This document shows positions 2,965-38,989 of a stretch of DNA of 64,000 bases, in pieces. Origin of the DNA: a virus. Made by a program: the position numbers and the translations under genes. The DNA lies in the IMG/VR virus record IMGVR_UViG_3300023174_005299, positions 1-64,000 of that record. The stretch is one strand, 5' to 3'. Position 1 is the first letter of the stretch. Each line of letters starts with the position of its first letter. The notes below the pieces were generated by a model. It saw only the letters and a list, made by a program, of their open reading frames with translations. It was not told the DNA's origin and did not search any database.

Positions 2965-2999
2965 GTTGTATTATACTATAAAAATAAGATTTATGCTAG

Positions 3000-4591: not shown

Positions 4592-4602
4592 TTTAATATA
4601 TG

Positions 4603-5088: not shown

Positions 5089-5160
5089 GTTTTCTCCTAT
5101 GTTAGATTATAGCATAGGCAGCAGAATTTGTAAAGCGGGAGTGATGCCAAAAGACCGCTA
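5089..5160 (-). promoter_or_regulatory. candidate cis-regulatory RNA (pseudoknot plus SD-sequestering hairpin) in the queD leader
   Basis: Minus strand: AGCGG/CCGCT stem, loop GGCA can pair with downstream TGCC, and a CCTATG...CATAGG hairpin covers the AGGAG RBS. Confidence 0.5.
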
Positions 5161-5164
5161 ATAA

Positions 5165-5821: not shown

Positions 5822-5829
5822 ATTGTTAA

Positions 5830-6222: not shown

Positions 6223-6223
6223 G

Positions 6224-6907: not shown

Positions 6908-6943
6908 TTTGTTTTCCTTCCTTACGCGGATTAATTTGAAAAG

Positions 6944-6965
6944 TTTGCTACCTTTGTGTAGCAAA
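6944..6965 (-). promoter_or_regulatory. 8-bp perfect hairpin in the folE leader
   Basis: TTTGCTAC-N6-GTAGCAAA lying just downstream of a CTAAATA motif. Confidence 0.4.
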
Positions 6966-18979: not shown

Positions 18980-20260
18980 TCAATACCTATAAGCATCGGG
19001 TTTGTATGGTCCGGCTTGATTGACACTGATATAGTTTGCTTGTTCTTCGGTTAACTCGGTGAGTTCGGCATGACATCTTGCAAGGTGCAGTCTAGCTACC
19101 ATTTCGTCTAAGTGCTTGGGCAATACATAAATCTCACCAATTTCATAATTGTTGGTATTAGTGTAAAGTTCAATCTGTGCCAACACTTGGTTGGTAAAAC
19201 TGTTGCTCATCACAAAGCTGGGGTGACCTGTGCCGCAACCCAAATTCACCAAGCGGCCTTTGGCCAACATGATAATGCGCTTGCCGTCGGGGAACACAAC
19301 GTGGTCCACCTGGGGCTTGATTTCTTCCCACACTAAGTCGCCTAAACTTGCAACATCAATCTCATTGTCAAAGTGTCCGATGTTGCACACAATGGCATTG
19401 TTTTTCATACGGCTCATGTGATCAAAGTTGATGACATTCACATTGCCGGTGGCTGTGACAAATATGTCAGCTTTGTCGGCAGCATAGTCCATGGTGACAA
19501 CTCGATATCCCTCCATAGCAGCCTGTAGTGCGCAAATAGGATCAATTTCTGTAACCCAGACTTGTGCGCTGAGTGCACGTAATGCTTGTGCACTGCCCTT
19601 ACCTACATCTCCATAGCCAGCCACCACAGCAATCTTGCCAGCAATCATTACATCAGTGGCACGTTTGATACCATCTACTAGACTTTCACGGCAACCATAC
19701 AAGTTGTCAAACTTGCTTTTGGTCACACTGTCGTTGACATTGAACACACGGAACGGCAAATTGTTGGCCAGTTGTTTTTCTTTTAGTCGATAGATACCTG
19801 TGGTGGTTTCTTCACTGACCCCTAGGATACCCGGCACAAGATCGGGAAAGTGTGTTTGAATACGATCAGTTAAATCATGTCCATCATCTAACACCATGTT
19901 GGGTTCCCAACCAATCAAGGTTTGATCAATGCACCACCAATACTCTTCTTCAGTCTCACCTTTCCAGGCAAACACCGGAACTCCCAAGTCAGCCAATGCG
20001 GCAGCGGCATGATCTTGTGTGCTAAAAATATTGCAACTTGACCAGCGCACTTCGGCACCTAGATCTATCAATGTTTTGACCAACACAGCAGTTTGAATAG
20101 TCATGTGTAGACTACCCACAATTCGTGCGCCGGCCAAGGGCTTTTGATCACGGAACTGTTCTCTAACTGCAATCAGTCCCGGCATTTCGGTTTCAGCGAT
20201 GGCAATTTCTTTGTGTCCCCAGCTGGCTAGGGCAATATCGGCAATTTTAAAATTATTCAT
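18980..20260 (-). CDS. ahcY: S-adenosylhomocysteine hydrolase
   Basis: [66 protein letters not shown]. Confidence 0.98.
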
Positions 20261-20281
20261 GTTTGTAATATAGTTGTTAAT

Positions 20282-20372
20282 GCTCACTTCAGACTACAAA
20301 GGTAGCGAGTCTTTTTCGTCTAGGCAGCAGCCGCCCACACACTCGGTAACGAGTACCGGTCCTAAGGTGTGT
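20282..20372 (-). ncRNA. candidate structured RNA upstream of ahcY
   Basis: GC-rich; ACACAC/GTGTGT stem enclosing CGGTA/TACCG, GGGC/GCCT hairpin, AGAC/GTCT stem, CTCGCT/AGTGAG pseudoknot potential. Confidence 0.45.
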
Positions 20373-20619
20373 TCTTTTTAAGTGTGTAATACACTTTAAT
20401 TTGATTTATCATTTCTTTGAGCACGGTGTCAGATTCTGACGCACGTCTAATTTCACCCCAAAGTTTATCTTCTCGAATCTGGTCAACAAGACTTTTGGCC
20501 CGAGTATTCTGTCCAATCATTATGCGTTCAGACTTACCAAGTTCTCTAGCGTATACTGTGTCACCACCGTCGGGACTTTCGTAGATGTAAGTAGCACCTG
20601 GTTTAAGTTTACCCATCAA
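20362..20619 (-). CDS. hypothetical phage protein
   Basis: YIYESPDGGDTVYARE motif common in T4-like phage small proteins. Confidence 0.7.
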   Translation of the reverse strand: MMGKLKPGATYIYESPDGGDTVYARELGKSERIMIGQNTRAKSLVDQIREDKLWGEIRRASESDTVLKEMINQIKVYYTLKKNTP

Positions 20620-21713
20620 TTTGTTAGGTAGTCCACAGCATAGTCTTGATCCACAAGACTTTTATGACACTTTTGTTCACACTCTACCCAAGCACAGCTT
20701 TGATCATCGAAGCTGTTGAATAAGTGCGACCAAGCATCATCATTTAACACATCCTCTAGACTGCGATGGTGTAGATTTATACTGTCCTTGAATTTGTTTT
20801 GAAAATTATCTTTGAAATGAATGGTTTTGCGATCATTGCCCATCTCTCGATAAGTGTAGCTGGTCCAACTGCAGGGATGCAATAACCCATCAGCACTGAC
20901 ATAGATGGCACGATTTCCAATTTCACACAATGGTGTGATAAATGTGTTGTGTTTGTTTTTGACCTGCTCAAATCTCTGCTGTGTTTCAGCCATGAATTGT
21001 TGATTCAACTGTTGCCGTCCTGACAAGTTGATCAACCGACGTTCGTATCTATGACTTTTGCTGATCCATTCTGCTCTAGGTTCAAGCTCATCGTGGTCGC
21101 CATTGTATCGCTCGCCATACTTGCTGCCAAACTTGGTGCTCAATGTCAACTGCAACCCATCACATCCAATGGATCTAGCCTGTTGTTCAATGTTGGCAAG
21201 ATGATCTTGATTGAATTGAAAAACAATTGTGGCCCAGTAAACAAAGGCCTTGCTGTGTTGGCACATGATATTCATGCCGGACATGATGCTGTCCCAGTCG
21301 CTGTTGACTCTGTATAAATTGTTGCTGGCTTGATCATAGCCATCTACACTGAAATTCACAGTGTCATACTCGTTGCTGATTTTTGCAAAGTCGTGCCACC
21401 AAGAGTCCTTTTTGTAACTGCCATTGGTGATGGTGTACAAGTGTATGCGATCATTGTGTGTTTTGATGTAATCAACAATGTCTAGATATTGACTGGCATA
21501 GATGGGGTCACCAATGTCACCGCACATAGTAATGCGTTGCACTTCGTTTTTCAACAGATCTGGACTCAGCACCTTTTTAAAGAAATTCAAATCAAGTTCT
21601 TTGTTTAATTTAAAAACAGGCTCTTCGTCATTTCTAGGACATCGTGGGCACTTCAGGGTGCATTTACCACTTACTTCAAAGTGCCAATGATATAACTGCC
21701 AGGGATATTTCAT
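20616..21713 (-). CDS. radical SAM protein with SPASM/twitch-like C-terminus
   Basis: CTLKCPRC, GDIGDP, TNG, FSVDG, C...DGLLHPC...C..C. Confidence 0.9.
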   Translation of the reverse strand: MKYPWQLYHWHFEVSGKCTLKCPRCPRNDEEPVFKLNKELDLNFFKKVLSPDLLKNEVQRITMCGDIGDPIYASQYLDIVDYIKTHNDRIHLYTITNGSYKKDSWWHDFAKISNEYDTVNFSVDGYDQASNNLYRVNSDWDSIMSGMNIMCQHSKAFVYWATIVFQFNQDHLANIEQQARSIGCDGLQLTLSTKFGSKYGERYNGDHDELEPRAEWISKSHRYERRLINLSGRQQLNQQFMAETQQRFEQVKNKHNTFITPLCEIGNRAIYVSADGLLHPCSWTSYTYREMGNDRKTIHFKDNFQNKFKDSINLHHRSLEDVLNDDAWSHLFNSFDDQSCAWVECEQKCHKSLVDQDYAVDYLTN

Positions 21714-22330
21714 TTTTCTAATCTAATGTGTTTTAGCAAGTGCTGTTGATCACCCAATGCAGTTCTCACTGGTGCCACCAAGTCTTCGGGCACCATGTAA
21801 TTTTGTCCAGCATACCAGGCATCAATCTCTGAGTGCGGCACTGTGCCGTTGTGTCGATTGTATCTAAGATTGGTTTTGCATAGACCGGGTTGTATGTAAG
21901 TGAGTCCAATCTCGGGAGGTAGTTCACGCTGTATGCCTTGGCAGAAAGTTTCAAGTCCAGTTTTGGACACTGTGTAGGGAATTTTACCCGGCCATACATA
22001 GTCGGTGGAGGTGCTACCAATCACAACGATCTTGCCCCAGTTGGGAGGCCGTTGAGCAAGATAGAATTTTACCAAGTGCATGTTGGCAATCAAATTCACT
22101 TGTATGTTGTATTGCCAGTCATCGTCGGGCATGTCAACAAATGGTTGGTTTCCACTGCGGTCAGCCCCGGCACACAACACAAGTGCATCAAAGTCATTTA
22201 ACAATGCCAAGAAAGGTTTGGATAGATCTAGTTCACTGCGAGGTAGTGCAACTACATCATGGTCTTTTTGTAAATCTTTATTAATTGCTTGTCCGATACC
22301 ACTCGAACCACCGGTCAAAAATACTCGCAA
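21710..22330 (-). CDS. short-chain dehydrogenase/reductase
   Basis: TGGSSGIG, YTVSK (YxxxK), PGLCKT; TTG start. Confidence 0.88.
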   Translation of the reverse strand: MRVFLTGGSSGIGQAINKDLQKDHDVVALPRSELDLSKPFLALLNDFDALVLCAGADRSGNQPFVDMPDDDWQYNIQVNLIANMHLVKFYLAQRPPNWGKIVVIGSTSTDYVWPGKIPYTVSKTGLETFCQGIQRELPPEIGLTYIQPGLCKTNLRYNRHNGTVPHSEIDAWYAGQNYMVPEDLVAPVRTALGDQQHLLKHIRLEK

Positions 22331-22420: not shown

Positions 22421-24724
22421 TTATTGCCAGACGCCGCCTTTGTTTTTGTACCAGATTTTAGCCCATCGATTGGCATCTTCAACAAGATGTTGATCAAACC
22501 TACTTGATGCTGCCACCTGTGCCTGTTCCCACAATAATAAATTTGAAGGTTTCAATTGGTTCTCAGTGATGCTTTCATTGGGCACACAGTTGCGTACTTG
22601 TCCGCCATTCTTACCTTTTTTAGTGCCCTCGGCGTGCTTGCCTGGCCAACAACGTGTGTAACCATTGGCGTCTTTTTGACCTTTTTTGATCTCATTGATA
22701 TTGCCATGTGTTTGACACATGCCACAGTCTTCACACACCATTTCCATCTCTGTGCTTTCATTGTGTTTCTTCTTACCTGCACAGTGAGCACGTTGGCTAA
22801 ACCCTTTAGGGTGAGAGCAGTTGATTGAATTTTTATACTTTTGGCTCCAGGCTTCGTTTAGTTCTAATTCACTGTGCGGGAAGGCAATATATGTGTCACC
22901 GTTGACATCGCCTGGACGAATTAAAAATACCCCTGCATCATCATCACCAGATTCATCTTGACCAATTTCCCAACCCATTGAAGCCAATGTTCGTTGTGCT
23001 TTGGCCATTTGTTGCTCTGTGCCCAACCACCATTGTGAGGCCAACTGCTTTAGAATATGTTCTTCATCGGGCTCACGGTCATCACCACCAGGTGGTGCAA
23101 ATTCACTTAATTCTTTTTTTTTAGCAATGGCAGCTTCTTCTACAGCCTTTTTAAACCCCTTGCCTGGTACCCAACCTGCAATGGGCTTGCACTTGCAACT
23201 ATCTCCGGGACATTTGCAGTTTTTCATACCACATTGCATACAGCGTTTTTCTGTGCTTTCGGCTACGCCCTGTTGTGGATCGTTGGGGTTGGTGGTCAAT
23301 ACAAACTCTTTGCCTTTGTTGAACAGTTTAGCCTGCATTGTTAATGCGGCTTTGTTTGCGGCAGCCTTGCCACGGTACGAGTAGGGATTGCCTTGTTTGT
23401 CTCTAATGAGTTTGCCATTGAGACGAATATACCAAGTCTGGGTGTCACGATCTAAGTCATGTCGCTCATCATCTCTTGCGCCACGTGCAAACCCTGTGGT
23501 ATTGGCATGATATTTTTGGCCTGCTTCGCCTAGACCTTGCTCCATTTGTCCCAATGTTTGTTCAACTTGGCGTACCCACCCGCTGACATCACTGCTTCCA
23601 ATTTCTTCTACGTCGCCCACAAAGTCGGCAACTTCATCAATGGCATTTAAAACTTTTTCAGGACCGTACTTGCTCAATAAGTCAACTCGTTGGCTCATGA
23701 TGCGACGTGTGATAGCACCGGCCACTGGACTGTGTTCTTCACCTTCTGCCACACCTTGTTCTTTATCAGTGTCAATCAACGTAAAGTTTTGCATACGCAT
23801 TTTTGCTTGTTGTTTTAATTGTTGCCATTCTTGTTGCTTTGCGGCTTTTTGTTCTGGAGACATAGCGGCATACTCTCTACCACTAATGCGAACCTCGACC
23901 TTTTCTGGGTTGGAGCCTTCTGCCACGCTTTCTTTTTTAGCAGCCAGCTCAGCTCTTTTCTTCATTAATAATGCCAAGCCTGAATTAGGAGCAGGTTCTT
24001 TATTACCATCCTCTGCCACACCTTGCTGGCTATACTTGTCAATCGCTTGGCCAAGCCATAACCTATAAAAACCAGGGCGTTCATTATATGCGCTAGTGCC
24101 GAGTACAGTTATTAATGCGGCTATAGCATCATTTTCTGTTGGGCCTTTCATTTTGGCTGCTATTTTATCAACAAGTGGATCAAATCGTGGTGTATCTTCT
24201 GCCATACCTTGTGTCTGACTCAATGCTTGTTTCTGACGCAATGCATCACGAGCCATTACTGTGTTTTCACGCGAGTTGTCGGGACCAAACCCATGTAATC
24301 TATTGCCGGCAGCAACGCCTGCACCTGTGGCCTTGCTGACATCTTTTGGTGTTGAGGAATAGCCACTTGTTGGGTTTGCACTCCACGCATCCATCTTATC
24401 GTATGCTCTGTTTTGAACTGCACCCAGTGCCGCTCTACCTGCCGGAGTGTTTCCAATTTCACTTAATTGTTCTTCCGCTATACCTTGTTGATCTTTTTGT
24501 AACCATCCGTAAACACTTACTAGGTCACTGGGAAAGTCTGCGTCGTAGTTGAACACAGACATGGCTCTTTTATTACCCAGTGCTGTTACTGCCAAGGGCC
24601 AGGCCGCATCTAGTATTTGATTTTCATCATGGATGTTGGGATTGGCATCAAACACTTGTTTTGCCAGGTCTTCGGCATAGTTGCCGCCACTGTTTGTGTT
24701 TTCAAATAGTTGATTGAGATTCAT
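22421..24724 (-). CDS. modular polyvalent protein with repeated QGVAE-type linkers and Cys-rich micro-modules; probable virion-internal protein
   Basis: 767 aa; linkers QGIAE, QGMAE, QGVAE x3, ESVAE, QGLGE; Cys-rich modules near the C-terminus. Confidence 0.7.
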   Translation of the reverse strand: MNLNQLFENTNSGGNYAEDLAKQVFDANPNIHDENQILDAAWPLAVTALGNKRAMSVFNYDADFPSDLVSVYGWLQKDQQGIAEEQLSEIGNTPAGRAALGAVQNRAYDKMDAWSANPTSGYSSTPKDVSKATGAGVAAGNRLHGFGPDNSRENTVMARDALRQKQALSQTQGMAEDTPRFDPLVDKIAAKMKGPTENDAIAALITVLGTSAYNERPGFYRLWLGQAIDKYSQQGVAEDGNKEPAPNSGLALLMKKRAELAAKKESVAEGSNPEKVEVRISGREYAAMSPEQKAAKQQEWQQLKQQAKMRMQNFTLIDTDKEQGVAEGEEHSPVAGAITRRIMSQRVDLLSKYGPEKVLNAIDEVADFVGDVEEIGSSDVSGWVRQVEQTLGQMEQGLGEAGQKYHANTTGFARGARDDERHDLDRDTQTWYIRLNGKLIRDKQGNPYSYRGKAAANKAALTMQAKLFNKGKEFVLTTNPNDPQQGVAESTEKRCMQCGMKNCKCPGDSCKCKPIAGWVPGKGFKKAVEEAAIAKKKELSEFAPPGGDDREPDEEHILKQLASQWWLGTEQQMAKAQRTLASMGWEIGQDESGDDDAGVFLIRPGDVNGDTYIAFPHSELELNEAWSQKYKNSINCSHPKGFSQRAHCAGKKKHNESTEMEMVCEDCGMCQTHGNINEIKKGQKDANGYTRCWPGKHAEGTKKGKNGGQVRNCVPNESITENQLKPSNLLLWEQAQVAASSRFDQHLVEDANRWAKIWYKNKGGVWQ
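23258..24487 (-). repeat. dispersed 15-bp repeats (consensus CAAGGTGTGGCRGAA) encoding QGVAE-like linkers
   Basis: Copies at 24473-24487, 24197-24211, 24011-24025, 23918-23932, 23744-23758, 23525-23539, 23258-23272; further copies at 29139-29153 and 29523-29537. Confidence 0.75.
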
Positions 24725-25275
24725 TATTTTTCTTCCAAGTAGTCCGCATTGCCTTCGGCCATTTTGCGTCGATTACAGTACATTTCACAAGCCATGACTG
24801 CATGTTCTAAATTTTTAAATTTTGCTGAGTGTGGTCGGTTTTTAATAGATACACGGAACCCATCATCTTCGTTGCCGTGAATCTTGATTTCGTGGCCATC
24901 ATCTGTGGTGATTGTTTTCACAGCAGAACCAAGCATGTCATCCTGCATTTGTTTATTTGATTGTAGTCCAGTGTCATGATTGATTGCACTGGCAACATCC
25001 TGCAAATAGTCGCCCAAGCGTTTTTTGACATTGCTCACAACATCTTCACTGGCCATGGATTCTTCCACACTTTCACCGCCTACAAAATATTTCTTGGCAG
25101 GATGTGCAGGGTCTGTTTTATCTTTTAAAACAGAAATAGAATTTGGTTTAAACAATGCTGGCATCTGCGGCACAGATTTTTGTTGTTTGTTTAGTCCATG
25201 CTTGACATTGGTGGGGGTGACATCACCTTCATTAATGGCATCAATGCGAGAAAGAATTTTTCTAATGTCACTCAT
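24724..25275 (-). CDS. hypothetical protein (probable head-associated)
   Basis: 183-aa ORF coupled to both neighbours; MSDIRKILSRIDAINE leader ending in xxE. Confidence 0.65.
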   Translation of the reverse strand: MSDIRKILSRIDAINEGDVTPTNVKHGLNKQQKSVPQMPALFKPNSISVLKDKTDPAHPAKKYFVGGESVEESMASEDVVSNVKKRLGDYLQDVASAINHDTGLQSNKQMQDDMLGSAVKTITTDDGHEIKIHGNEDDGFRVSIKNRPHSAKFKNLEHAVMACEMYCNRRKMAEGNADYLEEK

Positions 25276-25712
25276 GCTCGATTATCTTTCAGGAAACTAC
25301 GCAACATCCAACCATGCTTGCCATGTGCATCAAGACGCTCGGCCACAAAGTTGGCAATGCCTTGATTGTTTTCTTGCTCAGCTGATGCAAAGCATTGATT
25401 TAACAAATCAATCATGGTGCTGTTGTTGTCAAGTAACTCTTCGATCATCAAACGAGCACGTGGAATCTTTGTTTGTCCTTGGATAACTGATAACTCTAAA
25501 AAACGCTCAAAACTGCCGGGACTGTACTCGTCTAATGTGCGAATGTATTCAGCAATTTTATCAACAACACCATACACCTCACTGTAAAAATCCCCAAAGA
25601 ATTCATGCATTTGAGCAAAGTCTGGACCTTCCACATTCCAGTGAAAGTTTTGTGCTTTGATACTCAGGGCATATTGGGTAGCAAGTAGGGTCTTTAAATC
25701 ATCAGCGAGCAT
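25272..25712 (-). CDS. dps: Dps / DNA-binding ferritin-like protein
   Basis: NFHWNVEGPDFAQMHEFF, DKIAEYIR, KHGWML. Confidence 0.93.
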   Translation of the reverse strand: MLADDLKTLLATQYALSIKAQNFHWNVEGPDFAQMHEFFGDFYSEVYGVVDKIAEYIRTLDEYSPGSFERFLELSVIQGQTKIPRARLMIEELLDNNSTMIDLLNQCFASAEQENNQGIANFVAERLDAHGKHGWMLRSFLKDNRA

Positions 25713-25866
25713 TCTTTTTTCCTTTAGGCCATGCATTTACATAGCTATTTTTATATTTAGTTTTATTGGGTAATCCTGGTCGCGTAATTACCTCGCCCAT
25801 GGGCATGGACACTGTGGCAATTCCACCGCTGACTGTGTTTTCTCTGACAAATTCTCGTGCTCGCAT
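25702..25866 (-). CDS. small protein (54 aa) with MRAREFVRE leader; absent from the ORF track
   Basis: Hand translation MRAREFVRENTVSGGIATVSMPMGEVITRPGLPNKTKYKNSYVNAWPKGKKNAR; TAATG overlap with the upstream gene. Confidence 0.7.
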   Translation of the reverse strand: MRAREFVRENTVSGGIATVSMPMGEVITRPGLPNKTKYKNSYVNAWPKGKKNAR

Positions 25867-26153
25867 TATTCAATCACCAAAACATTGTTTTCTTCCCAGT
25901 GTGCATCGCCATGTTCAACTGCATGGCAGTCAATGGTGATTTGTGATGCACAAGGAGCAATGGATTCAACTTCAAGTTGATATCTTCCAGGAACTGCTTC
26001 TATTTGTAATATTTGTTTTAGATAATAATTGGAGTCCCAGCGCCAACTGCGTTCGGTGAATAATTCACCGTTGAGATACACACGATAAACTGGGGGTATC
26101 CCCTCCCAGTTACATTCTAAATCAAACACAGCTAGAACAAATTTTTTATCCAC
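25866..26153 (-). CDS. hypothetical protein
   Basis: 95 aa beta-rich ORF, GTG start after CTAAATA. Confidence 0.6.
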   Translation of the reverse strand: MDKKFVLAVFDLECNWEGIPPVYRVYLNGELFTERSWRWDSNYYLKQILQIEAVPGRYQLEVESIAPCASQITIDCHAVEHGDAHWEENNVLVIE

Positions 26154-26160
26154 TAGATAT

Positions 26161-26367
26161 TTAGCGGAGTTTAATTTCTTTGGGTTGCCCTACTAGTACA
26201 TTGCGATCGTTGTATTGTGCCCGGATAATTCGACGAGCCATTTCAGCATTACGGGCCTGCACAGTGGTGTCTATGATGTTGGTGTATCCCGGCTGTTTTA
26301 GTTTTATTTTTACAGCAAAGGTTTTTAGGCCTGTTTTTTTAGGATTTAAAAAATCTTGTGCTTTCAT
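26161..26367 (-). CDS. small basic protein with MKAQDF leader
   Basis: ATGA overlap at 26364-26367; TTVQARNAEMARRII motif. Confidence 0.65.
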   Translation of the reverse strand: MKAQDFLNPKKTGLKTFAVKIKLKQPGYTNIIDTTVQARNAEMARRIIRAQYNDRNVLVGQPKEIKLR

Positions 26368-27197
26368 TTTTTCTTGCCCGATTTCATATTGGCGCACCAG
26401 TGATACATCCGAGCCCGTTCGCCTGATGCGTTTTTAGCACGAGCACGTAGATCAGTTACTGACCCATCACAACTGGCACCTGCACGTTTCACACGTCCAG
26501 GACGACTCTTGCCCTTGACCTTGCCATCTGCAAAGTTTTCTTTCATGATCCATGTATCTGGTACTTGTTTATACCGGTCTACCCACATGTCATGCAACTT
26601 CTGACCACTGATGCTGTGAGTTTTTGCAATACGTGTCATTATCTTGTCAATTGTGTCATACACTTGATCATTGCTGGCAGACTGTAATCGTTGTTTGCGA
26701 GCCGTCAATGCCGCTCGTAGTTCTTCCACAGCTTGATTATCTTTGCTGTGGTCCATGTTTTCCGCCACAGTGGATTCCGCGGCAGTACCGATCAAATGCT
26801 TTGCATCGCCTGCCTTGTTCCAGGCCGCCCACATTGCTTGGCCTTGACTTGTTTGATTGTAACTGGGTCGAATATCATTGCCTAACATTTTGGCATACGC
26901 ATACATTGTGGATGCCACACCTTTGTTTCTATATGCTGGGTCAACCTCAGTGCCGCCGCTTTCTAAGTAATCCGCGGATGGATCTCTCTTCCCTCCTGGA
27001 GATCTTACAATTATTTCAAACAGGATATGACCTATTTCCCTATCGCTATCATAGGCCTTAACTGACAATAATGGCTCACCCATAAACATTTCAACTGATG
27101 CTTTGTAAGTATAATCACCAATCTTTTGTGTGTGTCTGAATCTTCGATTAAGAATATCTGTGTTTATTGTTTCAGTAACAAACTCTTGTGCTCTCAT
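26364..27197 (-). CDS. GNAT-like acetyltransferase domain plus small modules; MRAQEFVTE leader
   Basis: VDPAYRNKGVASTMY (GNAT motif A), QTSQGQAMW; modules begin after VAE and MKE. Confidence 0.7.
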   Translation of the reverse strand: MRAQEFVTETINTDILNRRFRHTQKIGDYTYKASVEMFMGEPLLSVKAYDSDREIGHILFEIIVRSPGGKRDPSADYLESGGTEVDPAYRNKGVASTMYAYAKMLGNDIRPSYNQTSQGQAMWAAWNKAGDAKHLIGTAAESTVAENMDHSKDNQAVEELRAALTARKQRLQSASNDQVYDTIDKIMTRIAKTHSISGQKLHDMWVDRYKQVPDTWIMKENFADGKVKGKSRPGRVKRAGASCDGSVTDLRARAKNASGERARMYHWCANMKSGKKK

Positions 27198-28075
27198 GCT
27201 AGTCCAATCTTGCCAGGTGCCATTGGTCCGTCTTTGATTCTTTCACCGCCATCAAAGTAACGTATTTCAATGGGCATGTCCTGCCAGTTTAATCTGTAGG
27301 CAGCCATGATACGATGATTGCCTTCGTTGACCCATGCTTCACCATTGTAGGCCACCATGATATAGGGCAGGTATTCCTGATCGGGATTACTGCCCATGGG
27401 CGGCAACTTGCCTGTGCGTTCCATGTAATCCATCAACCACTTTAAGTCATCTCGACGCACATTGGTTTGTTCGTTGCGCATGCCGGGAAGAGAAGCCAAT
27501 CTCATTACACGCACTCTAGGTGGAGTTCCAACAACACCGGCAGTAGTGCTACCCATATAAGGAACACCGTAGCTGTTGCGGCCTTTGCTTTGAGCATAGT
27601 CTATTTTATCTTGTAACCATTCTTCGTTGGGTACATCTACACTTAACTTGCCTTCTGTTACTGTTTGCTCTTTGATTCGTGGATTTAGGGTTTTTATGTG
27701 TGTAGCATCGCCTTGTTTTTCCCACTTATTCCACATGGCCTGGCCATCATCTGTTTGATTGGTAGAAGGTGATATGTTGGCACCCAGCATACGCATCACA
27801 GCATACATGTTTGCGGCAATACCTTGTCCCTGCCACTCTGGCTCTACATGAGTGCTTAGACTTTCCAATCCCGGACGAGTTTTGTGCTTCCAAAATCCTG
27901 CTTGAGCAATCACTTCGTTGTTTTTGTCAGTCACAGTGACCACCGGGCCAAATCCTTGATCATTTGTTACTTCGTACATGACGCCATTGATTTCCTGACG
28001 GAACTCAAACCCCGGTTGCATCACATCCTGGTTGAATTTTTCTTTGTATTCGCGTAAAAACTCTTGTGCTCTCAT
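27194..28075 (-). CDS. GNAT-like domain fused to a ParB/Srx-like domain; MRAQEFLRE leader
   Basis: VEPEWQGQGIAANMY, QTDDGQAMW; C-terminal VNEGNHRIMAA (ParB GxHR). Confidence 0.72.
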   Translation of the reverse strand: MRAQEFLREYKEKFNQDVMQPGFEFRQEINGVMYEVTNDQGFGPVVTVTDKNNEVIAQAGFWKHKTRPGLESLSTHVEPEWQGQGIAANMYAVMRMLGANISPSTNQTDDGQAMWNKWEKQGDATHIKTLNPRIKEQTVTEGKLSVDVPNEEWLQDKIDYAQSKGRNSYGVPYMGSTTAGVVGTPPRVRVMRLASLPGMRNEQTNVRRDDLKWLMDYMERTGKLPPMGSNPDQEYLPYIMVAYNGEAWVNEGNHRIMAAYRLNWQDMPIEIRYFDGGERIKDGPMAPGKIGLA

Positions 28076-28076
28076 A

Positions 28077-29612
28077 TTAGTGGAACATTAAGTAACTGTC
28101 GATCACATCCTTGCGATTGGCTGCACGATCTCCGGCACCGGGCTGTACAATAACATTCCACTTGGGTGCAGGACCCACCGGTGTTGCCAGCATTTGATCG
28201 TAGGTGATAATTGACTTGGGATCAACCTGATATTGCTGTGCAAGACGTTGTTTAAATGTGTCAAGTGCTTCAGGACTGGCAAACTGTGTGCGGCCCTTGG
28301 CGTCTTTGATCAAACTGTTGCCGTTACGTGCAATCAAATCAAAAAACATGTTCTTGGGAACTGTAACACCTTGCTTGACTGTGGCTCCAGGATTTTGTTG
28401 TTTATAGAATTCCACTTTCTTTTCTTCGCCACGTTTACTACCTGATGAGAAGTTCATTGTAAAGTTTGCAGGTGACGCACCTGTGGCAACATCGCCCATC
28501 TTGGTGTAGGCATAGAATTGTACATCAGGATTGGATTTAGCAACATCATAAGCAAGATCCAAGTATTCCTTACTGAAGAAGTCACCAGCATCGTGCCAAC
28601 GCACAACTAGTTGAATACCAGCTTTGTCTGCTTTGGCTTTAATTGTTTTAATCTCTTGATTGACTCTGGCACTGTAACCTTCGGGATCATTCACCAAGAA
28701 ATTTAGTGCTTGCGCCGCTGACATAGAGCTAGCAGGGAACATGACATAGCCACCCTTACGTGCATAGCAGAATAATTGGCAAGCACCAGCACCAGGACAT
28801 GTAGTAATTTCCACAAAGTCACCGGTGTCTTCATCTACAACAATGCCACTCAGCGCCGGCAATGTCAAGTCATAAATGATTTCACCTTCAGTCTTGCTCT
28901 TTTCCATTTTGGCATTGGTACCAAGTATAGCTCGTGGGCGTGTAGTAATTTGACTAGCTAAGTCGTCTAAGTCCCACTCGGTGTTGTTATCGTCTTTGGT
29001 GATGGCTTTGATGTTGCTGCCGTGAATAATTGGGGCAAACTTATCACGCTTGGTCTTTGTACCGGTCTTGATACGATTAGCATAGCCCTGCAATTCATCA
29101 CGTGGTATTGTGCGTTGTGGTGCGTTGAGTTTGATTGCTTCCGCCACACCTTGCTCTTTTTTAACAACAAACGATATTTGTTTGTTTCCAGTGTTGGGAT
29201 CTGTGTATACGCTCTTGAACACTCTACCGCCATGTTGTTTGGCATGAGCAAATGCTTCTTGTTTGTTGTCAAATCTGTTAGTAGGTGGCTTGATCATTGG
29301 GCTGGCTTCTTCGCCTATGCCACGAACAGCACGATCTAATCGCCATCTTTGTTGCGGTCCCAGCAAATGATTGTCTTCGGGTTTGGGACTATGGCCACCG
29401 TAACGACTTGGGTCAGCATGATGTCTTATACCTGTGGCAGTTTTTTCCACCGACCCTAGGTTAACTGGGGAATTATCTGGCGGAGAATTTGGTCCACGAC
29501 GACCACTGTTGGCGTTGCCAGCTTCTTCAACACCTTGATCTTGAATGTTCAATACCTTGACTGGAAATCCACCCAGGGTTGTTTCTTTTAATATAAAATC
29601 GTGAGCTCTCAT
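28077..29612 (-). CDS. modular protein with C-terminal Gp88-like (radical-SAM-related) domain; MRAHDFILKE leader
   Basis: CPGAGACQLFCYA, VRWHDAGDF, FYAYTK; QGVEE and QGVAE linkers. Confidence 0.65.
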   Translation of the reverse strand: MRAHDFILKETTLGGFPVKVLNIQDQGVEEAGNANSGRRGPNSPPDNSPVNLGSVEKTATGIRHHADPSRYGGHSPKPEDNHLLGPQQRWRLDRAVRGIGEEASPMIKPPTNRFDNKQEAFAHAKQHGGRVFKSVYTDPNTGNKQISFVVKKEQGVAEAIKLNAPQRTIPRDELQGYANRIKTGTKTKRDKFAPIIHGSNIKAITKDDNNTEWDLDDLASQITTRPRAILGTNAKMEKSKTEGEIIYDLTLPALSGIVVDEDTGDFVEITTCPGAGACQLFCYARKGGYVMFPASSMSAAQALNFLVNDPEGYSARVNQEIKTIKAKADKAGIQLVVRWHDAGDFFSKEYLDLAYDVAKSNPDVQFYAYTKMGDVATGASPANFTMNFSSGSKRGEEKKVEFYKQQNPGATVKQGVTVPKNMFFDLIARNGNSLIKDAKGRTQFASPEALDTFKQRLAQQYQVDPKSIITYDQMLATPVGPAPKWNVIVQPGAGDRAANRKDVIDSYLMFH

Positions 29613-32600
29613 TTTGCTTTGATCTCTTTCAGTTGGTTTTGTAGTTTGGTCATCAATAACGGTGGGCTGCCATTATCATCAATTGCCCAACCCAATTTCT
29701 TGGCTTGTCGCTGTGTTTCGCCAGGCTTGATATCAACTGTTAGGCCTGACACATAACGTGGATCGTGCGCCAGTTTGCTGTCAACAGGAATAAAACCGGT
29801 GGCTTCTTTTAACTGAACTGTTTTGGCACGGGCCGCCAGTTTTTCTGGCAAGGTAAATTCTGAATCAGGAGCAACACACACTGTGTCGACGCATTGATTG
29901 AGAACTTCGGTGGGCAAATCAATATAACTCAATGCACCACCATAGGCTTCTTGGAATGGCAAAGCAATGCCCACCAGGGAGTTGGTGAACGTTGGATTCT
30001 GTCCCACTTCACCAGGGCGATTCCCCCTCCAAAGACGAGTCTGACCTGATGCAACTGCCGGTAATTGACTTTGAATTTTGTTTGCTTGAGCAACTAGACT
30101 GCGAATTCGCGGTGTGTTTGCATAGTCATGCCCGTCATGAGTTATTTTGCCTTCTTGCTGTTCGTTTGATCTGACATACACTTTTTGCGGCAGTTGTTTG
30201 TTGTCGTTATTATATTTTGCCGGCTCACTGGATTTTTCTTTGTCAAAATACTTTCGCATCTCTGCTGAACTTGTCTTGGATTTTCTTTCACCGGGGGCCT
30301 TGGGCTTTGTTAAAAATCCAATTACACCTTCATCTGCAATATCTTCCGCTATTGGTTTTATTCTACTCAATTCGTACATGACTTTGTTGCCGGTTTCTGC
30401 ACGGAACGCACGGAAGCCCAAAGCCCTTGCATAACGCTGAACCAAACTGTCATACAGTCTTGCCCTGGTCATTGCTTTCCTTTGATCCTCATCTGGTTTA
30501 ACTTCTTTTGAGGCTGAGAAATATATTTTATTGGGCTTGTATTTTCCTTTTGCACCAGGCACCCTGTCAGAAATAAATGTTTGAACAGCACTTAGCACAG
30601 TGGCAAATACACGCTGTTGATCACCCTCACCTGTCTTTTCTTGACTGTTGTTTCTAAAGAACTCAACACTCCAGGCTTCCTCTTTTGTCTCTTGTTTAAA
30701 TCCCTTGTTAAACATAATGCTTAGAAAAGTTCCGTCATCTAATCGTGCTATTGCGTCTACATCACCGTGGTCACCCTTTTCCCACCGAAGTATTTTATAG
30801 GGTTGGTCCAATGATTCATTTATAGATTCATCAAATCGCCAATTACCAGTAAAAAATGGATCATTAATGACTATCTCGCCATCACTGCCAAGCATAAAAT
30901 TACCGCCATGCAAATCAAGTCTGTATCCCTTTCGGTCAGCAAGCTTATCCAGTTGCTCAATGGTGTTGGCCAACAACAGAAATTGTTGCCGCCCACCAAC
31001 CAATGACATTAGTTTTCCTGTTTCTTGATCTCCGTGGCGTCTTAGGAATTTATTAACTCCACGGTCTGCACCATTGGACTGTATCAAACTTGCCAGTTGC
31101 CCTAGCCTGGAACCAACCAGTATCAACCCAGACTTGCTAAGATCAAACATTCTTTCACAGTTGATCTGCAGATATCGTTTACCTTCAAAGTCAAAAGGTT
31201 CCCAGCCGCCAAACTGTGGCAAAAATGGATTGTTAGGCTTTGCCATGCAGTAATCGGCAAAGTCTTTGAAACTTTGTTGTCCTTGGGATAACTTACCGCC
31301 TGGACCGTAACCGAATATTTTGAGAACAGTTCCGTCGGGTGCTAGATAGGCATCTTGGTCCTGACCTTTGCCCAAAAATGCGTAGCCTTTTTTTACAAGA
31401 ATTGGTTGAATGTTTTTGCTGATCTGAGCTTCGTCTATGCTTTGTTTATCTTCGTCAGTGGTTGATTCGGGCACCGCTTGCCCTTGGCGACGACGCAGAT
31501 CATCTTTCATGCGCTGTAATAATTCTTCGCGAGCACCGGCAGCACCCATGTGCTTGATGGTCTGCGATGCACGCCCTATGGTTTGTATGTCCTTGACTGT
31601 TTGTCCAACACCACTGGTGGTGGCGCAACCAGGTGTGCCAGCTATGCATGCTGCCGCGGCCACGGCTGCTAGTTGGTCTTTGACAGATTCTTCCAATGGA
31701 ATATCTTTAAAAAATTCTGGGTACTGATCCACCCAATGACGCATGATACGGCCTGCCATGGCATTGGCCTCATCTTCGTGGGGTGATCCTGTTTCGCCTG
31801 CATCTACAGGCATGGTGGCCAGTTCATCCTGACGAGCATGCGTGAGTTCGTGTGCTAGAGTACGCAGTATGTCCAAAGGATGTCGGTTACTTACTGCCAG
31901 GGTCACTGAATATGTGTCAGTGTCAAACTGACCAAACGTGCCGTGTCTACGTGTCCACTCAGGATCTTTTTTTATTATAATTTTTGGGGCTTGTTCAATA
32001 CCAAGATATTCCATACAACTGTTTATGAATGGTTGCAGTATTTCTTTAATGTCACGGGGTTGTTGAGCTTCGGCTATGCTTTCGCTGACACCACCGTCAT
32101 CGCCACTACCACCGTCAAGCATGTTCAATGGACCAAAGCTGCCATACACAAATTTGGGTTTTTTGCGTTCTTTGAGACTTAGACTTTGGCTTTTGGCTGC
32201 TTGGCGTGCGGCTGTTAATCGATCCAATGTGCCGTTGTTTCTCAGCACTTTGAATGCTAGATTCTCGGGACTGAATTCACCAGTGTCTGCCAAACCAGCT
32301 TTGCGCATGTCTTTGATTTTGTCAGCAACTTGATCCATGCTGTCAAGGTCGCCACTTGCAATAGCCGAGTCAACTCGGTGTCCTAGATCTTCATACTTGC
32401 TCTTGACACTGATGTCATTGATGCTGGGTTGACTACGTTTGGGTACGCTCAACCATTTGTTGTCGCGAATTGAATATATGCCTTGACTGACATGCGGCTG
32501 TTTGCTGTCTTGCACATACAACTCAATGTCATAAGGGCCAATTTTAAAATTGTACTCATCATTGTATTGATACTTCTTGGCATTGAACAGTTCTTGATAT

Positions 32601-32872
32601 ACAGGATCATCGGGAATGTCTACAACTAGGTGTAGGTCAATGTCGCTGTGTGGGGTATATGTGTAGGCAGCATTGCTGCCGCTCAGTGTTATATCTTTGA
32701 GTGCCAGGTCATCTACACCCAGAAATTCTCGAAAATCATCTGCAATTTTCAGCAGATGATCTCGAACATCCAGGCGTAAATGTTGGTTAGACCCCCATAG
32801 TCGAGGGTTTAACTCTTGGTTAAATTTAATTGCGTCACTGAGACGAAATGATTCTAGTTCGTTGATGTCCAT
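29609..32872 (-). CDS. large polyvalent protein: Pol-beta-type nucleotidyltransferase, HExxH metallopeptidase, protein-kinase-like domain and further modules
   Basis: GSNAAY...SDIDLH; LAHELTHARQ...EDEAN; LGKGQ...VLKI...DLHGGNFM...INDP. Confidence 0.8.
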   Translation of the reverse strand: MDINELESFRLSDAIKFNQELNPRLWGSNQHLRLDVRDHLLKIADDFREFLGVDDLALKDITLSGSNAAYTYTPHSDIDLHLVVDIPDDPVYQELFNAKKYQYNDEYNFKIGPYDIELYVQDSKQPHVSQGIYSIRDNKWLSVPKRSQPSINDISVKSKYEDLGHRVDSAIASGDLDSMDQVADKIKDMRKAGLADTGEFSPENLAFKVLRNNGTLDRLTAARQAAKSQSLSLKERKKPKFVYGSFGPLNMLDGGSGDDGGVSESIAEAQQPRDIKEILQPFINSCMEYLGIEQAPKIIIKKDPEWTRRHGTFGQFDTDTYSVTLAVSNRHPLDILRTLAHELTHARQDELATMPVDAGETGSPHEDEANAMAGRIMRHWVDQYPEFFKDIPLEESVKDQLAAVAAAACIAGTPGCATTSGVGQTVKDIQTIGRASQTIKHMGAAGAREELLQRMKDDLRRRQGQAVPESTTDEDKQSIDEAQISKNIQPILVKKGYAFLGKGQDQDAYLAPDGTVLKIFGYGPGGKLSQGQQSFKDFADYCMAKPNNPFLPQFGGWEPFDFEGKRYLQINCERMFDLSKSGLILVGSRLGQLASLIQSNGADRGVNKFLRRHGDQETGKLMSLVGGRQQFLLLANTIEQLDKLADRKGYRLDLHGGNFMLGSDGEIVINDPFFTGNWRFDESINESLDQPYKILRWEKGDHGDVDAIARLDDGTFLSIMFNKGFKQETKEEAWSVEFFRNNSQEKTGEGDQQRVFATVLSAVQTFISDRVPGAKGKYKPNKIYFSASKEVKPDEDQRKAMTRARLYDSLVQRYARALGFRAFRAETGNKVMYELSRIKPIAEDIADEGVIGFLTKPKAPGERKSKTSSAEMRKYFDKEKSSEPAKYNNDNKQLPQKVYVRSNEQQEGKITHDGHDYANTPRIRSLVAQANKIQSQLPAVASGQTRLWRGNRPGEVGQNPTFTNSLVGIALPFQEAYGGALSYIDLPTEVLNQCVDTVCVAPDSEFTLPEKLAARAKTVQLKEATGFIPVDSKLAHDPRYVSGLTVDIKPGETQRQAKKLGWAIDDNGSPPLLMTKLQNQLKEIKAK

Positions 32873-33945: not shown

Positions 33946-34980
33946 TTATTGGCTGGTTTCATCGATGTAATCGTTGTTCTCGCCAATGTCAATCTCACGG
34001 CCCCGGGCCACTGGGCGTCGCCCTTGTTTTTGTCTAAAATCTTCAAGTCTAGCCAAGGCCTGCAATTTGCTCTGCATTGCGCCGGCCTTGTACAATACAT
34101 GTTCAGCACCGCGATAATTGCCAGATTTTAACATCCCGATTATTTCTGCAAATTGTTTGGCCAGACTGGATTTCAATGTATCTTCAGTCCAAGTGCCAAG
34201 TCCGCCTGTGGGACGAATTAATTCGCCTTGATCAGGATCATTGACTAGTGTAGCCTCATCAACTGGTGATTGTTTCCTGACAATGTCGGCCATGGCCTTT
34301 TTGTTGAGATTTTTAGTTTCTGCTGGCGCTTGTTTGCTGTCAGTGCCCATGCCGTTGTCCATGAGCTTGACTGTGACGTCTGTGAGTCTTGGATTATTGG
34401 CTGTGGCTGGGTACATGATGTTAACCAACTGTGCTTTGGTAGCATCATCATAGTTGGCCCACTTGGCACGAATTTCACTGCCTGATGTCATGCCATTGAA
34501 TTCATGCACAGGCAGGTACTTCAAATAACCGTGTTGACTCATTGGGGCAAGGCCATTGCGCTTGTAGTACTGCAACCAATCACTCACAGGTTGCCCTTTT
34601 CTAGCACCGCGAGTGACCAAGGGCAACTGCCCAGTTTTGGGATCTACTTCAGCCGGGAATGGTCCTTCGGGATCGGGTCCGTTTTTGGCATTCTTTTGAC
34701 TCTTGACAAATATTAACTGTGTATCATTGTCGGGATAGTGGCTGGTGATTTCGTCGGGTTTAAACGGACTCTTAACTTGTATGAATCTATGTGGTGGCAC
34801 ACCGGCCAGTTGTGCTAGTTTTTTCTTGATAGCAAAAGGAAACGGTCGTTCACTGCGATCATCAGTGGCTGCAATATAAACATCAGCTGAAGGAAATGCT
34901 TCGACTGCTTTGTCATACAAAGCCTTGTGTCCTGCATGGAACGGGTGAAAACCACCGGGAATTATAACCAATTTTTTCAT
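33946..34980 (-). CDS. HIGH-family cytidyltransferase-like protein with C-terminal extension
   Basis: PGGFHPFHAGH, SGSEIR. Confidence 0.8.
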   Translation of the reverse strand: MKKLVIIPGGFHPFHAGHKALYDKAVEAFPSADVYIAATDDRSERPFPFAIKKKLAQLAGVPPHRFIQVKSPFKPDEITSHYPDNDTQLIFVKSQKNAKNGPDPEGPFPAEVDPKTGQLPLVTRGARKGQPVSDWLQYYKRNGLAPMSQHGYLKYLPVHEFNGMTSGSEIRAKWANYDDATKAQLVNIMYPATANNPRLTDVTVKLMDNGMGTDSKQAPAETKNLNKKAMADIVRKQSPVDEATLVNDPDQGELIRPTGGLGTWTEDTLKSSLAKQFAEIIGMLKSGNYRGAEHVLYKAGAMQSKLQALARLEDFRQKQGRRPVARGREIDIGENNDYIDETSQ

Positions 34981-35969: not shown

Positions 35970-36689
35970 TTATTTAGTTAAGACTTGAATTGTTTTTCTA
36001 ATTAATCCTGGGGTAATTAATTCCAACATTTGAGATATTGCATCATTGTTGTGATCAAAATAGTAGTGACGTGCCACTAGATTATAGTGCCTTACACCAG
36101 CACTACTGAGCCAGGATTTGAAACTGGGACCTAGATTGATCCCTTGTTGACTTGTCAGGTACGCTGCCAAGGACTTTTTGGCTTCTTGAGAAATCAAACG
36201 TTCTTTAAAGTATGTTCGCCGAGTGTATTCACCAGTACCACGCACTGAATCAAAAGGTCTGTCAATTAACGCTTCGTGTACCACCTTGACATTGAAATCT
36301 TGAGCTGTTAGTTTGTCGACTTGTGTGATATCATTGGTGTAAACATAACACCAGTTTCTTGTGGTGGAAAATTTAAAATCTCCAGCTTGATTTTTGATCA
36401 AAGAATACAACCTGCACAATCTTTGTTCTCGATTAGCAAGAGTGAGTTCGTCATTTTGATAAGGTCTTGGAATCGCCCAAGACCCACCATAGTTGATATC
36501 CGGCTGCCAGCCCAGGCGTTTGGAAATAGTGTCAGGCGCAGTATCAACGTCATTGGAGAACAACCCACGCAACACACTGCATCTAGGTTCATTGATTGAA
36601 ATACTGTATTTGTATTTGTTAAAAAACAATCGATCTGTTGATTTTTTCTTATGCATCGGGATCAAGTTTTTCAAAAATAATGTAGCCAT
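35970..36689 (-). CDS. hypothetical protein
   Basis: 239-aa ORF; start could be 36656. Confidence 0.6.
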   Translation of the reverse strand: MATLFLKNLIPMHKKKSTDRLFFNKYKYSISINEPRCSVLRGLFSNDVDTAPDTISKRLGWQPDINYGGSWAIPRPYQNDELTLANREQRLCRLYSLIKNQAGDFKFSTTRNWCYVYTNDITQVDKLTAQDFNVKVVHEALIDRPFDSVRGTGEYTRRTYFKERLISQEAKKSLAAYLTSQQGINLGPSFKSWLSSAGVRHYNLVARHYYFDHNNDAISQMLELITPGLIRKTIQVLTK

Positions 36690-38934: not shown

Positions 38935-38989
38935 TTTGCTCCTTGTGCTTGTCATGTATAGTAACATGATTAATTGAATGCCACAATAT

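Follow-up and report, generated by a model that had tools for sequence, protein, structure and literature searches.

Genes and linkers of the cassette block

The stretch analysed here, referred to as the window, comprises 64,000 nucleotides of a 72.5-kb viral contig (about 21% complete), which is a piece of the genome of an uncultured, lake-derived, T4-like jumbo phage. The contig encodes a T4-like DNA polymerase (phrog_262, E 1.6e-195), PhoH and MazG. At positions 22421-32872 the window contains a block of genes, all those described below lying on the minus strand, which is surrounded by metabolic and chaperone genes rather than head genes. Searched as nucleotides, the block has no match among cultured phages, no RNA run was found to contain the stretch, and the T4 late-promoter consensus TATAAATA is not enriched (2 observed vs 2.36 expected).

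The gene at 22421..24724 encodes a cassette polyprotein of 767 aa that begins with the leader-like MNLNQLFE, followed by about 11 linker-joined modules. Seven linkers have the form [QE][GS][VILM][AG]E, namely QGIAE (aa 80-84, 24473..24487, CAAGGTATAGCGGAA), QGMAE (aa 172-176, 24197..24211), QGVAE (aa 234-238, 24011..24025), ESVAE (aa 265-269, 23918..23932), QGVAE (aa 323-327, 23744..23758), QGLGE (aa 396-400, 23525..23539) and a last QGVAE (aa 485-489, 23258..23272), which is written in different codons (CAGGGCGTAGCCGAA). The preliminary description had presented this ORF as a chain of unrelated modules separated by seven named linkers that share a near-conserved 15-mer. The chain and all seven linkers are indeed there, while the 15-mer holds for five of the seven, the linker at aa 485 having other codons; the modules can be called unrelated for six of the 11 segments (M3 and M6-M10), whose homologues occur in other contexts, and M1, M2, M4, M5 and M11 have no matches among 79 related loci. 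Pfam and PHROGs assign no family to the ORF, which contains 19 hydrophobic-x-E sites, only about 11 of them at junctions.

With up to two mismatches, the 15-mer CAAGGTGTGGCRGAA matches seven times in the 64-kb window, always on the minus strand, in the coding frame and inside the block: exactly at 23744 and 29139, with one mismatch at 24011 and 24197, and with two at 24473, 26721 and 29523. The expected number of matches is 0.35 (sd 0.54), and seven were reached in none of 100 shuffles. The linker had also been said to recur in the neighbouring gene at 28077..29612, and this 511-aa ORF, which starts with MRAHDFILKE, does contain an exact copy encoding QGVAE at aa 154 (29139-29153) as well as QGVEE at aa 26 (29523-29537, two mismatches); its small N-terminal modules and the two linkers are followed by a Pfam GP88 domain.

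Several further ORFs of the block begin in a similar way. The 54-aa ORF (25702..25866) starts with MRAREFVRE, which resembles a T4 capsid targeting sequence (CTS), the 277-aa ORF (26364..27197) with MRAQEFVTE, and the 293-aa ORF (27194..28075) with MRAQEFLRE. An internal module of the 277-aa ORF (aa 146-219) is flanked by STVAE and IMKE, and the C-terminal half of the 293-aa ORF follows QTVTE/GKLSVDV. The 183-aa ORF (24724..25275) has a longer leader-like start, MSDIRKILSRIDAINE, and is fused to M9-type modules in relatives. The largest ORF, at 29609..32872, encodes a polyvalent-type protein of 1087 aa with a nucleotidyltransferase-like N-terminus, the linker ESIAE (32069-32083), an HExxH module (aa 269-400, 31673..32068) and a kinase-like region; its matches are phrog_36119/NTP_transf_2 (weak, E 0.0014), the kinase-like phrog_15752, and phrog_16075. 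Multiple functionally diverse domains are thus seen in a single polypeptide, and the chains of relatives reach 2082 aa.

Two modules of the 767-aa ORF recur widely. M9 (FAPPGG..., aa 542-624, 22853..23101) is acidic, with a net charge of -13, and is predicted to fold into a small domain of the alpha/beta type whose ends are floppy; its model finds no fold match in the PDB (best E 1.1). M10 (WSQKYK..., aa 625-721, 22562..22852) is Cys/His-rich and basic and is the commonest module across the relatives; its first part is also present in T4-like cyanophages, and an Atlas search with it returned only viral clusters without names, at scores of at most 0.87. A loose regular expression for M9 caught unrelated proteins (46 of 64) and was replaced by a BLAST-based list. 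Whole-protein alignments built from module segments (A1 and A3) were visibly misaligned, with M9 segments 14-32% identical as compared with 75-85% by BLAST, and were dropped without being used for folding.

Leaders, putative cut motifs and the proposed head-cargo reading

The internal proteins of T4 are the textbook case of proteins that are injected with the phage DNA and disarm host defences, with one protein per gene. Like the window genes, IPI, IPII, IPIII and Alt carry a leader of about 10 residues that ends in F-hydrophobic-x-E (MKTYQEFIAE, the N-terminus of IPII and IPIII, vs MRAQEFVTE). This T4 sequence is the capsid targeting sequence, which gp21 takes off. According to a review, the first 10 residues of IPIII are enough for packaging, gp21 cuts by the rule L/I-X-E, and an Asp at position 10 prevents the CTS of T4 from being processed (PMC9026906). 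Leaders of this kind, about 10 residues long and ending in hydrophobic-x-Glu, are present in the window genes, and an ORF of one relative begins with MKTYQFITE. A hydrophobic-x-E site lies within the first 12 aa of 58 of 90 family ORFs, whereas a complete relative has one there in 46 of its 267 ORFs (Fisher p 3e-16); it is missing from the other 32 family ORFs, and some fusion partners, namely cytidylyltransferase-like proteins with a C-terminal M9, carry no leader. Further leader classes read MxxxDLFE/N and MSxDIRxILxRLxxVE. At the DNA level, the leader pattern has seven copies in the relative G001, on one strand only and with 0 control matches, and it was not found in the four nearest cultured jumbo phages searched. 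What follows the conserved leader is hypervariable, with 79 distinct leader-bearing ORFs unrelated downstream (2923 such pairs); a conserved leader with highly variable cargo is likewise described for the T4 internal proteins in the relevant parts of PMC3012670 and PMC9026906.

The same modules also stand behind linkers and leaders alike. Among 37 distinct contexts of M10, 35 have [LIVMF]xE immediately before the module, which in 15 of them stands directly after an N-terminal leader, and 11 different residues occupy the middle (x) position of the motif; M9 is preceded by hydrophobic-x-E in all 38 listed contexts. The window's ...SINE/SLD corresponds to MRSQEFITE/SLD at the start of a stand-alone gene in one relative (L048), the C-terminal half of the 293-aa ORF is a separate gene with its own leader in relatives, and the module at aa 679-893 of the 1087-aa ORF occurs there alone behind a leader. 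Leaders and internal linkers are interchangeable ahead of the same module.

A protease of the right type is encoded by the relatives. Peptidase_S77, the family of the T4 gp21-type prohead protease, scores above the Pfam cut-off in five of five near-complete relatives (331-356 kb), which also carry the same putative cargo locus, and an S77 protease is likewise what T4 uses. In the relative G001 the S77 protease is a 208-aa ORF (L090, 8563-9189). The gene order in one relative is portal, small protein, acidic protein, protease, scaffold, capsid protein. No S77 gene was found on the window's own 72.5-kb contig, which is a fragment.

The block may therefore be read, with a probability of roughly 0.6, as an internal-protein (head cargo) locus in which the T4 principle is extended to polyproteins. 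A short leader (M-R/K-A-x-E/D-F-hydrophobic-x-E, or, for example, MNLNQLFE) would direct the polyprotein into the prohead's scaffolding core, and a gp21-type serine protease would cut after the Glu of hydrophobic-x-Glu, stripping the leader and splitting each internal linker (QGVAE and variants). One gene would yield up to about 11 small, independent proteins, which would be retained in the head and would probably exit with the DNA at infection. By analogy with T4, we infer that the chains would be packaged, cleaved and injected, as had been proposed in the preliminary description, whose interpretation as a whole is partly supported. Its reading of the linker as a prohead-protease site gains independent support from the CTS-like leaders, the interchange of leader and linker and the S77 genes of the relatives. 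Counting against the head-cargo reading are the low information content of hydrophobic-x-E, of which the family has 2.4 sites per 100 aa, and the Val at P3 of the commonest linker, where the printed T4 rule has L/I, together with the 32 family ORFs that have no early site, the unenriched late-promoter motif and the metabolic and chaperone neighbours of the block.

An unlikely alternative is that the chains are uncut polyvalent proteins, acting or delivered as one molecule, whose linkers are stereotyped hinges kept alike by recombination. The linker motif is short, and the portions of PMC5512222 that treat these proteins report polyvalent proteins of 2-15 domains as frequent in phages and the virion RNA polymerase of N4 as packaged without processing. 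An invariant Glu with a hydrophobic residue two positions before it and a free residue in between would, however, be unusual for passive hinges; moreover, the N-terminal leaders end in the same motif and resemble the cleaved T4 CTS, and the same modules are found as separate small genes with leaders.

It is quite unlikely that another enzyme does the cutting, in the head or once the proteins have been injected, whether a host protease or the zincin-like metallopeptidase module carried by the 1087-aa protein. The HExxH module is predicted to adopt a minimal zincin-like metallopeptidase fold: all 18 sequences compared share H73, E74, H77 and a Glu further downstream, and the structure model (pLDDT 84.4, pTM 0.80) has small zincins as its first Foldseek matches, among them abylysin (4jiu, E 6.7e-3), jannalysin, Wss1, SPRTN, IrrE and selecase. 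Iyer et al. 2017 (PMC5512222) propose that MPTase domains process polyvalent proteins in this way. On the other hand, no Foldseek match of the model reaches E 0.001 and a Pfam search of the module finds no peptidase family, many chains of relatives lack the module within the same protein, relatives have it as a cassette with a leader of its own (MRLREFAE...), and the linker motif matches the S77 rule.

Module shuffling and frozen DNA at the linker

The linker is also where the chains are rearranged. Across 79 related loci, modules shared with the window appear in different orders (M10-M8-M3-M7 in L046), behind a linker or directly behind a leader and almost always with hydrophobic-x-Glu in front. 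The 67 distinct QG[VILM]AE sites give 66 combinations of left and right module, nine left modules having at least two different right partners and six right modules at least two left partners. DNA identity between relatives falls to background at the very edge of the linker. Of the alignment breakpoints, 34% are no more than 3 aa away from a candidate cut-motif site; the null gives 15.8%, with a maximum of 17.6% over 200 trials. Gains, losses and exchanges of modules among relatives fall on the linker 15-mer, a positive outcome of the alignment test proposed in the preliminary description.

Variants in assembled lake-metagenome contigs show the same shuffling. The 12 joints found include eight replaced or divergent stretches ('between: not known' or 'goes back'), which are left out of the clean skips and of which only 23132->23258 ends at a linker; the clean skips end in linkers in four of four cases. 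A skip of 276 nt, found in runs X2 and X3 from two studies, is the exact loss of aa 85-176 (M2) from the 767-aa ORF, joining the linker at aa 80-84 to that at aa 172-176, with 15 letters common to both sides. The module at aa 146-219 of the 277-aa ORF is missing from the X2 and X3 contigs; for X2-X4, the interpretation is confined to the parts of the stretch covered by contigs. The linker at aa 485-489 ends both 23132->23258 and 23263->29320. A 6-kb joint in X1 has a depth of 2.7 and a shorter side of only 35 letters.

Between unrelated modules, the linker DNA hardly varies even at silent sites, a conservation that exceeds the needs of the peptide. Exactly CAAGGTGTGGCGGAA, including the rare codon GCG, encodes 33 of the 67 distinct QG[VILM]AE junctions, and Ala is GCG in 35 of 42 linkers as compared with 3.0 expected (p 1.8e-79). 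GTGGCGGAR is found in 42 of 52 QGVAE but in only 11 of 99 non-linker VAE, the freeze being specific to (Q)GVAE. Across 2110 pairs of linkers with unrelated flanks, identity is 0.89 within the 15-mer and 0.27-0.30 beside it. Together with the swaps at linker edges in relatives, this conservation bears out the earlier suggestion that the linker DNA serves as a joint for module shuffling. The linker is a recombination joint, exactly at which modules have been gained, lost, swapped, fused or split in relatives, and a stop codon together with a new leader can take its place.

It is improbable that the 15-mer is mainly a DNA or RNA signal, such as a recombinase or nuclease target or a translational pause on the rare GCG, with the peptide being secondary. 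Silent sites frozen far past codon usage, specifically for (Q)GVAE, and the clean linker-to-linker deletions that exist in nature would fit such a signal, but many junctions (LNE, ITE, IEE, ESVNE) are written in other words and still follow the hydrophobic-x-E rule, so that the rule for the peptide extends beyond the DNA word, and no recombinase was seen adjacent to the block. This signal reading is compatible with head cargo and does not exclude it. A rather doubtful extension combines the two, making the linker a dual-use word of 15 nt, at once a cut site in the head and an address for active, perhaps dedicated, recombination that reshuffles the cargo in populations. Such a system would resemble an integron inside a gene; it is equally doubtful that such an event has been captured in a population by a low-depth contig of the probable source sample, in which a linker of the 511-aa gene is joined to one of the 767-aa gene.

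Known systems and significance

No description of such a system was found in the searched literature. In contrast to the T4 internal proteins, the window chains join many unrelated modules in one ORF through internal copies of the putative cut motif; their leader is one residue shorter, additional leader classes occur, and the linker is a frozen word of 15 nt. Polyvalent proteins (Iyer, Burroughs, Anand, de Souza, Aravind 2017, PMC5512222) are likewise long and multidomain, and their delivery together with the DNA is predicted in the part of that work concerned. The 1087-aa ORF is similar to them in that it combines a domain resembling nucleotidyltransferases with a zincin-like HExxH module and a region resembling kinases; Pfam detects GNAT domains in a relative's chain, and a ParB-like module may be present, judging by eye from a motif. 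Most window modules differ in being 30-100 aa long and in having no known family, and the same part of PMC5512222 proposes autoprocessing by zincins and does not describe hydrophobic-x-E linkers, a T4-type leader or a linker DNA word.

Short conserved DNA flanking cassettes is also known from PeSL shuffling in T4-type phages, where it provides sites for recombination within the hyperplastic regions of T4-like genomes (Arbiol et al. 2010, PMC2839356), and T4 recombination requires only patches of less than 50 bp (PMC2839356). PeSLs are intergenic composites of a promoter and a stem-loop, about 100 bp long, that move whole genes (PMC2839356), whereas the element repeated in the window is not of this type: it is an in-frame coding word of 15 nt inside ORFs and moves protein modules within genes. 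In the giant phages phiKZ and SPN3US, a diverged gp21 homologue cuts many head-internal proteins of the inner body or ejection type after the Glu of a short motif and at several places in each protein, as is proposed here (PMC9026906, in its treatment of these phages); those are single proteins with propeptides and not chains of swappable modules, and both lineage and motif differ from those of the window.

If the head-cargo reading is true, a large lineage of uncultured freshwater T4-like jumbo phages has made the T4 internal-protein scheme combinatorial, with one leader loading a chain that the head protease would turn into many mini-proteins, and with a frozen linker word that permits modules to be swapped without breaking the frame or the cut sites. 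This would account for the ability of such phages to carry a large arsenal and to keep renewing it, would make hundreds of small module families candidate anti-defence proteins, and would offer a natural design for packaging multiple cargoes into T4-type capsids. A wide protein search yields 1423 related chains of 421-1343 aa.

Linkers and their frozen DNA

In the block (22421-32872, minus strand), where the ORFs abut or overlap, small modules are joined by short linkers whose DNA is frozen. The ORFs measure, as listed, 1087, 511, 293, 277, 78, 95, 54, 154 (Dps/ferritin-like), 183 and 767 aa. The 767-aa ORF (22421-24724, minus strand) carries QGIAE, QGMAE, QGVAE, ESVAE, QGVAE, QGLGE and QGVAE, starting at residues 80, 172, 234, 265, 323, 396 and 485, which is the series read in the preliminary description. 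The 15-mer encoding this type of linker occurs in seven copies in the window at up to two mismatches, all on the minus strand, in frame and inside the block; 0.35 copies are expected, and seven were attained in 0 of 100 shuffles. The claim of a near-conserved word applies to five of the seven linkers of this ORF; the one at residue 485 has other codons. Outside the block, the linker peptide pattern occurs only twice on the whole 72.5-kb contig, as QSVAE and QSIAE.

The 67 distinct QG[VILM]AE sites form 66 different left/right pairings, in which nine left modules are found with at least two different right modules and six right modules with at least two left ones. Exact CAAGGTGTGGCGGAA stands at 33 of these 67 sites. 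Codon choice in the linkers is far from that of the ORFs that contain them, with alanine as GCG in 35 of 42 linkers (expected 3.0), valine as GTG in 28 of 33 (expected 7.7) and glycine as GGT in 34 of 42 (expected 19). GTGGCGGAR encodes 42 of 52 QGVAE, 20 of 38 xGVAE, 4 of 16 xSVAE and 11 of 99 other VAE, and the DNA freeze is specific to the linker. Among 2110 pairs of linkers with unrelated flanks, identity is 0.89 across the 15-mer and 0.27-0.30 alongside it; when the pairs have a single module in common, be it the left or the right one, identity shifts at the linker edge. No description of such a linker-jointed arrangement was found in the literature searched. Its nearest known counterparts are the T4 capsid targeting sequence (CTS) with its prohead protease gp21, the polyvalent proteins (PMC5512222) and PeSL-mediated shuffling (PMC2839356).

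Module exchange at the linkers

Modules are exchanged, gained, lost, fused and split exactly at the linkers. From 119 relatives confirmed by scanning IMG/VR, 79 loci were retained, and in these the modules of the 767-aa ORF (M1-M11) reappear alone and reordered, for instance as M10, M8, M3, M7 in locus L046. A wide protein search returned 1423 proteins of 421-1343 aa, none with an informative name, that mostly have 10-30% of the query in common, equivalent to one or two modules. Of the 37 distinct contexts of the WSQKYK module (M10), 35 have [LIVMF]xE in front of the module, and in 15 of these it lies immediately after an N-terminal leader; the two others are a QTE after a leader and a spurious ORF. 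The end of M10 lies at most eight residues from a hydrophobic-x-Glu site in 26 of 29 cases, and the FAPPGG module (M9) has the motif in 38/38 listed contexts. The 1087-aa and 293-aa ORFs have domains that stand in relatives as leader-bearing genes of their own: SINE followed by SLD in the window matches MRSQEFITE followed by SLD in locus L048, and QTVTE followed by GKLSVDV matches MRAQEFITE followed by GKLSVDV in the complete relative G001, so that a linker is interchangeable with a stop codon plus leader.

In an unbiased count of alignment breakpoints (n=2797), 34.1% lie within three residues of a site, versus 15.8% for random positions (200 trials, maximum 17.6%); the raggedness of alignment ends keeps this enrichment down to roughly twofold. 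The shortness of the motif, with 2.4 sites per 100 aa, is a weak point.

Parts of the stretch are contained in 20 public runs, nearly all from lake water, one of which contains 96% of its words and is possibly the sample of origin. Assembled contigs, not reads, from four runs (X1-X4) were compared over 22421-29700, and the joints were converted to residues. The skip 24194->24471, found in X2 and X3, which come from two studies, removes 276 nt, exactly residues 85-176 (QGIAE to QGMAE), with 15 letters matching both sides. In the same two runs, 26541->26764 removes 222 nt, or residues 146-219 of the 277-aa ORF (STVAE to IMKE), and in X2, X3 and X4 the skip 23733->24226 exchanges the M3-M5 region for 21 nt coding a GVAE linker. 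The joint 23263->29320, between GIGEE in the 511-aa ORF and QGVAE in the 767-aa ORF, is weak, as it is seen only in X1, at a depth of 2.7, and its shorter side has 35 letters. The remaining eight joints are replacements or divergent stretches. The expectation that module gain and loss break at the linker is thus borne out, both by the clean skips, 4/4 of which end in linkers, and by the shift of identity at the linker edge.

Leaders, proteases and the predicted cargo

T4-like leaders are present in the block and an S77 protease in its relatives. Four block genes start with MRAQEFVTE, MRAQEFLRE, MRAREFVRE and MRAHDFILKE, and MKAQDF is an internal start of a fifth; T4 IPII and IPIII both start with MKTYQEFIAE (T4 record). 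According to PMC9026906, gp21 recognises L/I-X-E and cleaves on the C-terminal side of the Glu; for packaging, residues 1-10 of IPIII are enough, and processing is governed by residues 8 and 10. The T-even internal proteins are, according to PMC3012670, a very diverse set with the CTS as sole common part. The strict nine-residue leader was found on 79 distinct ORFs in the 79 related loci, each on the cargo-gene strand, and a hydrophobic-x-E lies in the first 12 residues of 58/90 family ORFs versus 46/267 ORFs of the complete relative (p 3e-16). That genome (352,754 bp) contains the leader DNA pattern seven times on a single strand, five at 54-74 kb and two near 263 kb; four cultured jumbo phages searched contain 0 copies. 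Leader DNA is far less frozen than linker DNA. The 767-aa ORF starts with MNLNQLFE, of a second leader-like class (MxxxDLF-E/N) found on many relatives. Together with MSxDIRxILxRLxxVE and MSNILKGL, it makes up a set of N-terminal classes that recur alongside the T4-like one (window 24701-24724, 25840-25866, 29583-29612; relatives), and a T-x-x-GG motif often comes after the leader (ENTNSGG, ENTVSGG, ETTLGG).

Following the T4 model, the leader would drive packaging, the head protease would cut every hydrophobic-x-E junction, and the released modules would be delivered into the host, with any effector role being a putative one. The window's own 72.5-kb fragment, about 21% complete, has no S77 gene; 5/5 near-complete relatives carrying the same locus have one (81-92 bits, cut-off 27), and in G001 it stands in T4-like order (portal, small protein, acidic protein, protease, scaffold, capsid protein). 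Linker cutting might instead fall to a zincin-like module of the 1087-aa ORF, in which HExxH and a downstream Glu are both invariant. Its model (pLDDT 84.4) is matched best, if weakly, by small zincin peptidases (best E 6.7e-3), and it fits the MPTase domain that polyvalent proteins carry (PMC5512222). Weak points of the T4-based reading are the Val at P3 of the most frequent linker, the chains that lack a leader, a search for a late-promoter signal that found none, and the absence of the leader from the cultured relatives searched. A leaderless cytidylyltransferase-like enzyme (window 33946-34980, minus strand) bears M9 cargo modules at its C-terminus in L070, L071, L075 and L081; modules are therefore also joined to proteins outside the leader model.

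Modules, phage and neighbouring genes

Most modules gave no family in the family search, and their net charge spans -13 to +6. The model of M9 is a small alpha/beta domain (pLDDT 77) without a match in the PDB, with low confidence at the first nine and last few residues, those beside the junctions. The first part of M10 is present in T4-like cyanophages, there too after hydrophobic-x-E. The S-SM2 protein SSM2_108 (L109 2683-3111), encoded between the terminase genes gp16 and gp17, starts with MKTLKQFLKE, closely similar to the T4 CTS, and the P-TIM68 gene (L110 2464-3585) lies two genes downstream of the major capsid gene. These cultured cyanophages offer a possible test system.

The IMG/VR contig, whose first 64 kb make up the window, belongs to a T4-like phage, as marked by DNA polymerase phrog_262 (E 1.6e-195), PhoH, MazG and queuosine-type genes. 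Polymerase comparison places Phosso, Atu_ph07, Vibrio 2.275.O, fHe-Yen9-04 and Serratia BF nearest among cultured phages, at 43-50% identity; all are jumbo phages, with genomes of 349-490 kb. Block genes share 1 or 4 nt (TAATG, ATGA) at 24724, 25866, 27194-27197 and 29609-29612, overlaps that suggest coupled translation along the whole cargo-gene chain. The Dps/ferritin-like gene (25272-25736, minus strand; 154 aa; Pfam Ferritin E 3.4e-24) lies within the block without a leader and has homologues in related loci (41 ORFs matched). Immediately before the block (18980-22330, minus strand) are a radical SAM/SPASM enzyme, a short-chain dehydrogenase and a 435-aa ORF, which gave no match in the family search and which, judged by eye, is probably an S-adenosylhomocysteine hydrolase. 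Just past the block (36649-39769, minus strand), a ClpB-type two-ring AAA+ chaperone of full length (772 aa) adjoins a DnaJ (259 aa) with J domain and C-terminal domain. QueE-like, QueD-like and GTP cyclohydrolase genes, together with a methyltransferase and a glycosyltransferase (2080-6964, minus strand), suggest a 7-deazaguanine-type DNA modification.
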